In this document: in pieces, positions 18,063 to 30,213 of the stretch
Numbering within the stretch: position 1 is the first letter of the stretch
Layout: every line of letters begins with the position of its first letter
Source: a virus
Lineage: Duplodnaviria > Heunggongvirae > Uroviricota > Caudoviricetes
Length of the DNA stretch: 44,766 nt
IMG/VR virus record: IMGVR_UViG_2627854066_000006
Direction: 5' to 3' (one strand)
Translations under genes and position numbers: made by a program
Notes under the pieces: model-generated
Told to the model about the DNA's origin: nothing
The model's database searches: none
Seen by the model: the letters and a program-made list of their open reading frames with translations, nothing else

Positions 18063-18545
18063 ATGTCAGGACCTCCGAAAACCCCGCCACGCCTGCATTT
18101 GATACGAGGCAACCCCTCAAAGCGCCCCGTTAAAGACCCCAAAAAAACCGCTAAAAAGGATGAAAAAGGTCTTCCTAAAATTCCGCAGCATTTAGGGGCA
18201 CAGGGGAAGTACTGGTTCAGGCGAATGGCGGAAGAGCTGAATGCGGAAGGGATCATTTCTCAGCTTGATGCGCGTGCGCTCGAGTTGCTGGTGGAAGCCT
18301 ACACCGAATATCGGCATCACTGCGAAACACTCGATGTTGAGGGGTATACCTACCGCACGGAAACGCAGAGCGGTGATGTACTGATTAAGGCGCACCCCGC
18401 GGCGGCAATGAAAGCGGATGCCTGGAAGCGGATCCGGGCAATGCTTGCAGAGTTTGGTATGTCACCGGCAAGCCGGGCTAAAGTAAATATCGCCGGACCG
18501 GATGATGTTGATCCGCTGGCGGAGCTTTTAAAAGCGAGAGACTGA
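18063..18545 (+). CDS. Terminase small subunit (P27-family like)
   Basis: 160-aa basic protein directly upstream of, and overlapping by ATGA, the terminase large subunit start. Confidence 0.7.
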   Translation: MSGPPKTPPRLHLIRGNPSKRPVKDPKKTAKKDEKGLPKIPQHLGAQGKYWFRRMAEELNAEGIISQLDARALELLVEAYTEYRHHCETLDVEGYTYRTETQSGDVLIKAHPAAAMKADAWKRIRAMLAEFGMSPASRAKVNIAGPDDVDPLAELLKARD

Positions 18546-20301
18546 TGGCAAAAGTGGCTGACGGGATCCGCTACGCCGAACGTGTTGTTGCAGGAGAAAT
18601 TGTTGCTGGCGAATTTGTCCGCCTGGCCTGCCAGCGTTTTCTTGATGATCTGAAGTACGGCGAAGAGCGGGGGATTTATTTCAGCGAACCCGTGCGCAGC
18701 ACATCCTGAATTTCTACAAATTTGTGCCTCATGTAAAAGGGGCGCTGGCAGGCCAGCCCATTGAGTTGATGGACTGGCATGTATTTATCCTCATTAATAT
18801 TTTTGGTTTTGTCATTCCGCTGGTCAATGAAGAGACCGGGGAAGTTGTCATGCGCAGCGATGGCAGCGGACATCCGGTGATGGTGCGCCGGTTCCGGACG
18901 GCGTACAACGAAGTCGCCCGTAAAAACGCAAAATCAACTCTGTCATCGGGTATCGGCCTGTATATGACGGGGGCAGATGGTGAAGGCGGAGCTGAGGTGT
19001 ATTCAGCCGCAACCACGCGTGACCAGGCCAGAATCGTGTTTGAAGACGCCAAAAATATGGTCAGAAAAGCCCGGTCGACACTCGGGCGGTTGTTTGATTT
19101 CAACAAGCTGGCGATTTACCAGGAGCAGAGCGCATCAAAATTTGAACCGCTTTCTTCGGATGCAAACAACCTGGATGGTCTGAACATCCACTGCGCCATT
19201 ATTGATGAGCTGCATGCACATAAAACCCGTGACGTGTGGGACGTTCTGGAAACGGCAACCGGTGCCCGTCTGCAGTCCCTTTTATTTGGTATCACCACGG
19301 CAGGGTTTAACAAGGAAGGGATTTGTTACGAGCAGCGTGATTACGCCATCAAGGTATTGCGTGGCTATAACAGCGACGTGGAGGGCGCGGTAAAAGACGA
19401 CTCCTACTTTGCGATTATTTACACCCTCGATGAGGGAGATGATCCGTTTGATGAAACGGTCTGGCAGAAAGCGAATCCCGGCCTGGGCATCTGTAAACGC
19501 TGGGATGATCTGCGTCGCCTGGCGAAAAAAGCGAAAGAACAGGTCTCTGCGCGGGTGAATTTTTTTACCAAACACATGAATGTGTGGGTAACAGCAGAGT
19601 CTGCCTGGATGGACATGATTAAGTGGGAGAAGTGCGAATACATTGCCCCACGACATGAGCTGAAAACGTATCCCATGTGGGTCGGCGTTGACCTTGCTCA
19701 TAAGATTGATATCTGTGCGGCGGCAAAACTCTGGCGAACGGATAACGGGCATGTTCATGCCGATTTTAAATTCTGGCTTCCGGAAGGACGGCTGGAACGA
19801 TGCTCGCGGCAGCAGGCAGAACTTTACCGGAAGTGGGCGGAGATGGATAAGCTGATTCTGACGGATGGTGATGTTATCGATCATGCTCAGATAAAAAGTG
19901 ACTTACTGGAATGGATTGGTGGTGAAAACCTCAGGGAACTGGGATTTGACCCGTGGAGCGCGATGCAGTTCAGCTTGGCACTGGCTGAAGAAGGGATACC
20001 GCTGGTGGAGGTTCCGCAGACGGTTCGCAATCTGTCAGAGGCCATGAAGGAAACGGAATCACTGGTCTATGCCGGGCGTTTCCATCACAGCAATCATCCG
20101 GTCATGAACTGGATGATGTCTAACGTTACGGTAAAACCGGACAAAAACGACAATATCTTCCCGAATAAATCCACGCTGGAAGCCAAAATCGACGGCCCTG
20201 TTGCGATGTTTACAGCAATGAGCCGGATGCTGGTCAATGGTGGTGAACCGGAGCTGGATCTGTCTGAACATCTGGTCAGCGTGGGCATCCGCTCGCTTTA
20301 A
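18545..20301 (+). pseudogene. Terminase large subunit interrupted by a -1 frameshift near 18690-18708
   Basis: ATG at 18545 reads MAKVADGIRYAERVVAGEIVAGEFVRLACQRFLDDLKYGEERGIYFSEPVRSTS then stops. The rest of the protein (...AQHILNFYKFVPHVKG..., 525-aa ORF 18724..20301) is in the -1 frame. Confidence 0.7.
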
Positions 20302-20312
20302 CCGAGGTCATT

Positions 20313-20494
20313 ATGTTTCTGATAATTCTCGCGCCACTGGTGGGCATGCTGGGTGCGCTTTTGCTGGCGTATGGTGCCTGGCTGATTTATCCCCGGCGGG
20401 TTTTGTTGTTGCCGGGGTGCTGTGCCTGTTCTGGTCGTGGCTGGTGGCGCGATATCTCGACCGTACACAGCCGTCTGTCGGCGGAGGTAAATAG
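20313..20494 (+). pseudogene. Small two-TM membrane protein gene between terL and portal, apparently frameshifted
   Basis: Frame 1 has RBS GAGGT + ATG and encodes [26 protein letters not shown]...; frame 2 continues ...[32 protein letters not shown] and stops in a TAGTG overlap with the portal start. Frames switch near the run TATCCCCGGCGGG. Confidence 0.3.
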
Positions 20495-27926: not shown

Positions 27927-27974
27927 GCCTCTTTATCCTGGTCGACGCTGAATGAGCCTGGTAATATACCCGGT

Positions 27975-29513
27975 ATGAGCAGCTCACTTCCTGACGATAT
28001 CAATGCACTGAAACGTCTCCTTGCCGAACAGGAGGCGCTGAACCGTGCCCTGCAGGAAAAGCTGAACGAGCGTGAACGCGAAATAGACCATCTGCAGGCA
28101 CAGCTGGATAAGCTGCGCCGGATGAACTTCGGCAGCCGCTCGGAAAAAGTCTCCCGTCGTATCGCACAGATGGAAGCTGACCTGAAGGCACTTCAGAAAG
28201 AAAGTGATACCCTTACCGGTCGGGTTGACGACCCGGCCGTGCAGCGCCCGCTGCGTCAAACCCGCACCCGCAAACCGTTCCCCGAATCACTCCCCCGCGA
28301 TGAAAAACGGCTGCTGCCGGCAGCGTCATGCTGCCCGGAATGTGGAGGCTCGCTGAGCTATCTGGGTGAGGATGCCGCCGAACAGCTGGAGCTGATGCGC
28401 AGCGCCTTCCGGGTTATCCGGACTGTACGTGAAAAGCATGCCTGTACTCAGTGCGATGCCATCGTGCAGGCCCCCGCGCCTTCACGGCCCATCGAGCGGG
28501 GTATCGCAGGACCGGGGCTGCTGGCCCGCGTGCTGATCTCAAAGTATGCAGAGCACACCCCGCTGTACCGCCAGTCTGAAATGTACGGCCGCCAGGGCGT
28601 GGAGCTGAGTCGTTCACTGCTGTCGGGCTGGGTGGATGCATGCTGCCGGCTACTGTCACCGCTGGAAGAAGCGCTTCAGGACTATGTGCTGACTGACGGT
28701 AAGCTCCATGCTGATGACACGCCTGTCCCGGTGCTGTTGCCAGGCAATAAGAAAACGAAGACCGGGCGGTTATGGACCTACGTTCGTGACGACCGTAACG
28801 CCGGGTCAACGCTGGCGCCGGCGGTGTGGTTCGCTTACAGCCCGGACAGAAAAGGCATCCATCCGCAGACCCATCTTGCGGGGTTCAGTGGTGTACTGCA
28901 GGCGGATGCATACGCCGGGTTCAACGAGCTGTACCGGGATGGCCGGATAACGGAAGCCGCCTGTTGGGCTCACGCCCGCCGTAAAATCCACGATGTGCAC
29001 GTTCGCACCCCGTCAGCCCTGACGGAGGAAGCGCTGAAACGGATCGGCGAACTGTACGCCATCGAGGCAGAGATAAGGGGAATGACGGCGGAGCAGCGCC
29101 TTGCCGAACGTCAGTTGAAAACGAAACCGCTGCTGAAATCCCTGGAAAGCTGGCTGCGTGAAAAGATGAAAACCCTGTCGCGACACTCAGAACTGGCGAA
29201 AGCGTTCGCATACGCCCTGAACCAGTGGCCGGCGCTGACGTACTATGCAGATGATGGCTGGGCTGAGGCGGACAATAACATCGCTGAAAATGCGTTGCGG
29301 ATGGTCAGTCTGGGCCGCAAAAACTACCTGTTCTTCGGTTCGGATCATGGAGGAGAGCGGGGAGCGCTGCTGTACAGCCTGATCGGGACGTGCAAACTGA
29401 ACGGAGTGGAGCCAGAAAGCTACCTCCGCTATGTCCTTGACGTCATAGCCGACTGGCCGATAAACCGGGTCGGCGAACTGCTCCCCTGGCGCGTAGCACT
29501 GCCGACTGAATAA
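27975..29513 (+). CDS. IS66-family transposase TnpC
   Basis: 512 aa with N-terminal leucine-zipper-like region, CxxC pairs (CCPECGG, CTQCDA) and the DDE-containing core. Confidence 0.8.
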
Positions 29514-29550
29514 CACATCCCCGTCAATACGGTTCTTGCTGCACGCTTAC

Positions 29551-30213
29551 ATTTCGTCTGCACCGGTAACAGCAGAAACCCTGGATTCTGCCAGCTATCT
29601 TGGCCTGAGCTGTACAATCAAAGAGGTGCAGTTTACCGCAGGACAAAAGCAGGATATTGATGTCACCACGCTGTGTTCTGTTGAGCAGGAAAATATTAAC
29701 GGCCTTGGTGCCGCGTCAGAGATTTCCATGTCAGGCAACTTTTACCTCAATGCTGCCCAGAACGCGTTGCGCAGTGCCTATGACAATGACACCACGTATG
29801 GCTTTAAAGTTATTTTTCCGTCAGGCAACGGATTTACCTTTATGGCAGAGGTGCGTCAGCATACCTGGTCTGCAGGAACTAATGGTGTTGTGGCTGCAAC
29901 GTTTTCCCTGCGCCTGAAAGGTAAACCTGTGCTGACGACAGAGCCGCTGAAAGTGAAGGTCGATTTAAACAGCACGCTGCAGGTTTCTGCCGGAGCGAAA
30001 CTCGAAATGGTGGTTGAGGCTGCCGGTGGTGTGCCGCCTTATTCTTATGTCTGGAAGAAAGGTAGTTCTCCTGTTTCCGGACAGACGGCGGCAACATTCA
30101 GTAAGGCATCAGCAGCATCAGGTGATGCCGGTGCGTATACCTGCGAGATTTCTGATTCAGCAAGCCCTGTTAACAAGGTGACCTCCACTTCCTGCACTGT
30201 TACCGTCAGTTAA
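29551..30213 (+). pseudogene. Major tail protein, 3' portion (C-terminal Ig-like domain) downstream of the IS66 insertion
   Basis: Continues in frame (...ISSAPVTAETLDSASYLGLS...) once the IS and one copy of the 8-bp duplication are removed; C-terminus ...AGAYTCEISDSASPVNKVTSTSCTVTVS is Ig-like. Confidence 0.7.

Follow-up and report, generated by a model that had tools for sequence, protein, structure and literature searches.

Layout and relatives of the serU prophage

The stretch of DNA analysed here (44,766 nucleotides, IMG/VR record IMGVR_UViG_2627854066_000006, hereafter the window) matches with 100% identity JXMX01000002.1, a 1.37-Mb NCBI contig of assembly GCA_000831715.2. We found that this 44.8-kb window is a lambdoid prophage at the tRNA-Ser gene serU whose head is of HK97 type and whose tail is of lambda type; its portal and major tail genes are interrupted by two different insertion sequences (ISs). 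Its left, host-side end is marked by two features:

1-837, minus strand: mtfA, at the left end of the window, host side
892-981, plus strand: tRNA-Ser(CGA), serU, the integration site on the attL side (ARAGORN; Rfam tRNA; context shared with annotated relatives)

The early region runs from the integrase through an ExoVIII-type exonuclease, ydfABC-DicF-dicB, a DicA-like repressor, a Cro-like gene and YdaT to the replication genes. It is followed by a middle region with QueH, hok/sok, DUF968, RusA, the antiterminator Q, a low-GC two-gene moron, two holins and an M15 endolysin. The head module has the order HNH, TerS, TerL, portal, S78 protease, HK97-type capsid and connectors, and the tail module the order major tail, G/T, tape measure, M/L/K/I/J, Lom, tail fibre and Tfa. 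Both this modular order from int to the fibres and the integration at a tRNA gene are characteristic of lambdoid phages.

The closest relatives are the serU prophages of two chicken isolates, GPEC1258 and E7, which share 99.98% nucleotide identity with the whole window. Uninterrupted copies of the module from terS to the tail completion gene, present in many Escherichia coli genomes (e.g., APEC 102026 and SMS-3-5), have 99.7-100% identity to that of the window, and the head modules of phages phi467, SfIV, SfI and SfII show 97-99% nucleotide identity to that of the window. The mosaic cargo of the group is illustrated by SCU-115, whose sister prophage at serU shares the head module but has cdtABC (cytolethal distending toxin type I) at the right end (L005 40430-42530) and, in the early region, an ABC-three-component defence-like cluster.

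Insertion sequences in the portal and major tail genes

The portal gene (413 amino acids (aa) in relatives) is interrupted after about codon 272 by an element of the IS91 family:

20494-21310, plus strand: portal gene, 5' part, approximately codons 1-272 of 413 (Pfam Phage_portal, profile positions 2-224 of 321)
21311-23023, minus strand: IS91-family (IS1294-like) element of 1,713 bp, with a transposase at 21482-22690 (402 aa) and a 90-aa open reading frame (ORF) at 22671-22943
23024-23448, plus strand: portal gene, 3' part, a 143-aa Phage_portal fragment

The 402-aa product matches Pfam Y2_Tnp (E = 2.8e-57) and Zn_Tnp_IS91 (E = 2.1e-22), and is thus an HUH/Y2 transposase with the accompanying zinc domain. 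The uninterrupted portal reads ...CAGCTTG followed by AAGAAATC...; in the window the element stands directly 3' of CTTG (21307-21310), terminates in GTTC and shows no target duplication at the junction. Insertion immediately 3' of a CTTG/GTTC tetranucleotide, without target-site duplication, is a trait of the IS91 family. Copies annotated as "IS91 family transposase" on E. coli plasmids are 99.8-100% identical over approximately 1,720 bp, and one of those with 100% identity adjoins ISEcp1-blaCMY-2. The element is IS1294-like; IS1294 is a rolling-circle element typically found on blaCMY-2 plasmids. The full identity to the copy beside ISEcp1-blaCMY-2 suggests that a resistance plasmid carried by this poultry-type strain was the source of the portal copy. 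The IS1294/portal junction was found in none of 5,426 complete genomes and is present in two independent NCBI assemblies, JXMX01 and AYRA01.

The second element, ISEc22 of the IS66 family, lies in the 234-aa major tail gene, 50 nt from its start and after codon 16:

27047-27096, plus strand: major tail gene, 5' stub of 16 codons and 2 nt
27097-29550, plus strand: ISEc22 (IS66 family) with tnpA, tnpB and the DDE transposase gene; ends GTAAGCG...CGCTTAC
29551-30213, plus strand: remainder of the major tail gene (tail tube and Ig domain)

ISEc22 begins with GTAAGCGTCG..., ends with ...CACGCTTAC and is flanked by an 8-bp target duplication, ATTTCGTC, at 27089-27096 and 29551-29558, so that it has both the inverted repeats and the duplication expected of the IS66 family. 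The three-ORF structure of that family is likewise present (Pfam HTH_Tnp_1, TnpB_IS66 and DDE_Tnp_IS66; RefSeq annotation of an identical copy). Downstream, the RefSeq annotation has a hybrid ORF of 228 aa whose start (29527) lies within the end of the IS.

The ISEc22 junction is widespread: it was found in 2 complete genomes and, among other assemblies, in at least 17 contigs with 0-157 substitutions downstream; most of the many related E. coli assemblies that share it are poultry-associated. The junction contigs were recognized by the hybrid tail ORF, 17 of them with Met as its first residue; the literal ATA/Ile start matched two Logan contigs. Since this junction is spread over many assemblies and that of IS1294 over two, the ISEc22 event appears to be the older and lineage-wide one, and the IS1294 event recent and strain-specific. 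The two ordered events could serve as lineage markers.

A first-pass annotation, made from the window's sequence, had already placed an IS91 in the portal gene and an IS66 in the major tail gene. Both calls are confirmed, the former by the junction, the Y2 transposase and the 100% identical plasmid copy, and the latter by the ISEc22 ORFs, ends and 8-bp duplication. Mis-assembly as the source of either insertion was ruled out by the precise junctions, the family hallmarks and the recurrence of the insertions in independent assemblies.

Six single-base deletions in G/C runs

Compared with the GPEC1258 prophage, the window shows approximately 4 substitutions in about 40 kb and six one-base gaps, all of which are deletions in the window:

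6494: G10 to G9, intergenic
12475: G5 to G4, in rusA
18689: C4 to C3 (CCCC to CCC), in terL
20391: C5 to C4, in the 60-aa ORF
30721: C3 to C2, in gene T
30749: G3 to G2, in gene T

None of the six occurs in any other assembly examined, and the longer allele is found in every relative alignable at each site. All six fall in G/C rather than A/T runs (p = 0.003), all are deletions with no insertion among them (p = 0.016), and the two in gene T lie within 28 bp of each other (p = 0.02). Even G/C runs of 3 are hit, whereas all 68 A/T runs of at least 6 have been spared. Over the approximately 19 kb compared with near-identical assemblies, the window has five or more indels vs. no private substitution.

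The deletion at 18689 is the terL frameshift that the first-pass annotation had counted as a lesion. It is present in the sequence, where CCCC has become CCC, but the short allele occurs in 0 of the 934 complete genomes containing this terL segment. Contig AYRA01000104.1 (GCA_000503595.1) ends 50 bp inside the same IS1294/portal junction and over 9,957 bp has no substitution relative to the window. The sole differences are at the three homopolymer sites within its span, at each of which it has the in-frame long allele, and it encodes a TerL of 585 aa, a RusA of 118 aa and a small ORF product of 60 aa. For gene T, the long alleles are present at both sites in 10/10 other assemblies, five of which show no other difference over 5-9 kb.

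Long-read-only bacterial assemblies commonly retain homopolymer-length errors that fragment genes (PMC8812927, PMC12007338). The six deletions bear this signature and do not resemble natural mutation. Given a private set of deletions in G/C runs, and an intact terL in the assembly that shares the IS1294 junction, we consider the terL lesion very probably an assembly artefact. All six deletions would be homopolymer-length consensus errors of JXMX01000002.1 and not mutations. The possibility that lesions might prove to be assembly artefacts, named beforehand as what would overturn the idea of a defective prophage, thus applies to terL and not to the IS junctions. Frame breaks that the first pass had missed, in T (two deletions), in the 60-aa ORF and at the 3' end of rusA, are probably artefacts as well. 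Prophage decay as judged from pseudogenes in this record would therefore be inflated by homopolymer errors (terL, rusA, T and the small ORF).

Integrase and attachment side

1034-2059, minus strand: tyrosine integrase, 341 aa (from its translation; phage integrases align to residue ~328 of 341)

RefSeq labels the integrase "frameshifted" in all serU relatives, which belong to different phylogroups. The catalytic tyrosine is kept (Y317, ...LIYDRK...), and the difference from the RefSeq model is limited to the last few codons, within tandem AATATTCCAAG repeats. The label looks like a quirk of the annotation model. The integrase was considered as a fourth lesion and rejected as such on the basis of the kept tyrosine, the alignment of homologues to residue ~328 and the restriction of the difference to the last codons. 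We also rejected the "phage" records vB_EcoS-689R5 and vB_EcoM-606R7 as proof of a working integrase in a free phage; the 689R5 record corresponds to an excised prophage region rather than to virion DNA, because it contains mtfA and host tRNA genes. The tandem AATATTCCAAG(AA) repeats (window 1009-1075, minus strand) lie beside tRNA-Ser/attL and overlap the last codons of int; they could be arm-type Int binding sites.

Packaging, head and tail genes outside the IS elements

The remaining late genes are arranged as follows:

18063-18545, plus strand: terminase small subunit (P27 family), intact here (Pfam Terminase_4)
18545-20301, plus strand: terminase large subunit, split into 54 aa and 525 aa by the deletion at 18689 (Pfam; 585 aa in relatives)
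20313-20494, plus strand: 60-aa ORF between terL and portal, with the 1-bp deletion at 20391 (comparison with relatives)
23426-26987, plus strand: HK97-type prohead protease, major capsid, head-tail connector, head closure, gp10-like and tail completion genes, all intact
30228-30599, plus strand: tail assembly chaperone gene G, intact
30611-30899, plus strand: tail assembly chaperone gene T, with two 1-bp deletions (96-aa T in 10 other assemblies)
30945-44766, plus strand: tape measure, M, L, K, I and J (tail tip), Lom-family outer membrane protein, side tail fibre and tail fibre assembly genes (frames intact; lengths and Pfam content as in E7)

A full-length match to the Rfam IS009 small RNA (sRNA; 225.6 bits) lies at 44528-44726, within the tail fibre assembly gene.

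Immunity, accessory and lysis genes

5044-5458, minus strand: ydfA/B/C-dicF-dicB-type operon, with dicB at 5044-5232 and the DicF sRNA at 5407-5458 (Rfam DicF, 76.7 bits; dicB annotated in relatives that are identical here)
6629-7048, minus strand: DicA-like helix-turn-helix (HTH) repressor, 139 aa (Pfam; annotations)
approximately 7129-7382, plus strand: Cro-like HTH gene, divergent from the DicA-like repressor (Pfam; annotations)
9587-10252, plus strand: QueH (epoxyqueuosine reductase) homologue (Pfam PF02677, E = 1e-65; RefSeq annotation)
10320-10645, plus strand: hok/sok type I toxin-antitoxin, with a hokD-like ORF at 10490-10645 (Rfam sok, 111.9 bits, full length; hokD annotation)
12149-12504, plus strand: rusA, 110 aa instead of 118 through the deletion at 12475 (118 aa in the AYRA01 contig)
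13621-15171, plus strand: two-gene moron encoding 346 aa and 169 aa, GC 39-43%, between the Q antiterminator gene and the holins (PADLOC; composition)
15463-16700, plus strand: lysis cassette with two holins, an M15 endolysin and a 61-aa ORF (Phage_holin_8, Phage_holin_3_7 and Peptidase_M15_4; frames as in relatives)

DicF and sok are both matched over their full Rfam models. In the Pfam search the DicA-like repressor showed an HTH domain only and no S24 peptidase domain. Between this repressor and the ydfA-like gene lies a poly-G tract (6485-6494), which has nine G residues in the window, ten in GPEC1258 and eleven in E7, with a TATAAT-like hexamer just downstream; the tract may be truly hypervariable, within a regulatory spacer, or else may be miscalled by every platform.

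The QueH-type protein WP_000150294.1 is carried by several serU prophages; in E. coli K-12 the epoxyqueuosine reductase step is performed by QueG. The two moron proteins gave no match in Pfam and matched only candidate models of PADLOC, those of the candidate defence system PDC-M18, with E = 1.6e-196 for component A and 3.4e-75 for component B. The position of the moron, between Q and the holins, is that of stx in Stx phages. The modules that had been listed as intact in the first-pass annotation (immunity region, dicB/DicF, hok/sok, QueH, lysis, tail tip and moron) do have intact frames, being base-identical to genes not annotated as pseudogenes in GPEC1258 and E7 or differing from them by one substitution.

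Probable loss of virion production and the fate of the accessory genes

At least one essential morphogenesis or packaging gene carries a verified lesion (portal; major tail), which makes the element a defective prophage, and autonomous production of infectious particles has probably been lost through the two IS lesions. The earlier claim that three independent lesions block virion formation thus stands as far as the predicted block is concerned; its cause is two IS insertions, not three lesions. We favour, with a probability of about 85%, the reading that a lambdoid serU prophage was recently disabled by two random IS events and that the six deletions are assembly errors. On this reading, ISEc22 would first have inserted 50 nt into the major tail gene, and the IS1294-like element would later have entered the portal gene. 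These two transpositions alone would end autonomous virion production, and the intact state of the regulatory, lysis and accessory genes would reflect an inactivation so recent that there has been too little time for other decay.

Several points weigh against this reading. The 228-aa hybrid ORF might yield a partly functional tail tube protein. All four IS hits seen in this prophage lineage lie in late genes, a weak trend (p = 0.10) towards what the first-pass annotation had proposed. As for the deletions, they could in principle be real private mutations if AYRA01 and JXMX01 represent different isolates; the sequencing platform of JXMX01 was inferred from its 1.37-Mb contig, and the AYRA01 contig does not span the two T sites or the poly-G site. 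With ten G residues in GPEC1258 and eleven in E7, there may be true variation at the last of these.

The foremost alternative is that of a domesticated cryptic prophage, kept since its cargo (the PDC-M18 pair, DicF/DicB, hok/sok, QueH and Lom) is beneficial or addictive to the host. The first-pass annotation had likewise read the pattern as retention of host-beneficial or addictive functions. In favour of such retention, at least 17 contigs carry the ISEc22-inactivated form, with 9-157 substitutions downstream in some, so that it would have survived some diversification; the cargo genes are intact, and incomplete prophages preferentially lose genes of lytic functions in surveys (PMC7744054). 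The late genes (packaging and virion), however, make up 56.9% of the non-IS prophage, so that two of two hits among them are compatible with chance (p = 0.32). Adding the independent IS hits in sister prophages, namely IS903B in terS of GPEC1258 (L001 18582-19505) and an IS3-family element in the tail fibre gene of SMS-3-5 (L006 40431-41659), gives p = 0.18 for three hits and the above-mentioned 0.10 for four; lesions are thus not enriched in virion genes beyond their share of the length. Nor is there differential decay: the rest of the head and tail genes and the lysis genes are preserved as well as the accessory ones, and no deletions of modules are seen. The divergence from uninterrupted relatives (~0.01%) is too low to measure selection: with only about 4 substitutions in approximately 40 kb, neither differential decay nor purifying selection would be visible. 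Moreover, the same cargo occurs in relatives with intact virion genes, which marks it as ordinary phage cargo rather than as a signature of domestication, and among the retained modules the apparently complete lysis cassette is a liability and not a benefit.

For dicBF, hok/sok, QueH and the PDC-M18 moron alike, selection is possible but finds no support in the sequence, and the retention claim is accordingly not upheld; we regard domestication as unlikely. It is similarly doubtful that the ISEc22-inactivated prophage has been maintained across a widespread, largely poultry-associated lineage for its cargo, especially for the PDC-M18 pair. If it were, IS1294 in the portal gene and IS903B in terS of GPEC1258 would mark the start of a selective erosion of virion genes.

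A second alternative, which we hold to be somewhat less probable still, is that the prophage is defective alone but mobile, being excised and then packaged and transferred with portal and tail proteins from co-resident lambdoid prophages. Intact genes include those for the integrase (with its catalytic tyrosine), replication, Q, lysis, TerS, capsid, protease and tail tip, to which terL can probably be added; the terL/portal family is a common one, with the terL segment at up to four places per genome; and defective lambdoid prophages of O157 Sakai are excised, packaged and transferred (PMC2669165). Against such mobilization, no helper prophage is visible within the window, the two IS elements enlarge the genome by 4.2 kb, and the integrase, a C-terminal variant, may not be functional. 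SOS induction is doubtful with a repressor devoid of the peptidase domain, as for Sp6, Sp9 and Sp10 (PMC2669165). Because this repressor has an HTH domain only, mitomycin C induction may be as uninformative for the present prophage as for those three.

That all three lesions are real, terL and the five other deletions being true mutations by mutator slippage or under relaxed selection in a prophage decaying rapidly by frameshift and IS, is very improbable: the deletions do exist in the deposited sequence, four of the six lie in late genes already useless after the IS insertions and the poly-G tract varies in length among relatives, but relaxed selection does not alter the mutation spectrum, here marked by the excess of indels over private substitutions, by the sparing of long A/T runs and by two events 28 bp apart, the assembly with the strain-specific IS1294 junction carries intact alleles, and one deletion per ~7 kb, extrapolated to 5 Mb, would imply hundreds of frameshifted genes.

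Comparison with known systems

An IS-inactivated lambdoid prophage with intact cargo is of an already-known kind, and its parts are all annotated in RefSeq relatives; such prophages are commonplace in E. coli (PMC2669165, PMC7744054). The pool of defective prophages in O157 Sakai (Sp1-Sp18) is similar in that its members have one or a few inactivating defects, including ISs in packaging or morphogenesis genes, with the other modules intact, and in that some of their repressors lack the SOS peptidase domain (PMC2669165). It differs in strain background and cargo, and excision, packaging and transfer have been shown there experimentally, whereas the present element is known from sequence.

Among the relatives, the prophages of GPEC1258 (NZ_CM142782.1) and E7 (NZ_CP104523.1) share with the window the integration site, the gene order and the ISEc22 site with its 8-bp duplication, yet they lack IS1294 in the portal gene and all six single-base deletions. 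GPEC1258 has the separate IS903B in terS, while E7 carries the ISEc22 lesion only. In the serU prophages of APEC 102026 and SMS-3-5, as well as in phages phi467, SfIV, SfI and SfII, the genes from terS to tail completion are all intact, with no IS in portal or major tail, and their head module represents the uninterrupted ancestral state. Their early, immunity, lysis and cargo regions differ from those of the window, in keeping with mosaic genomes.

The type of the immunity region and dicBF operon and the hokD-type toxin are shared with the cryptic prophage Qin (Kim) of E. coli K-12 (dicA-dicC, ydfABC-dicF-dicB and hokD). Qin is a heavily deleted remnant; the element in the window, by contrast, is of full length with only two IS insertions.

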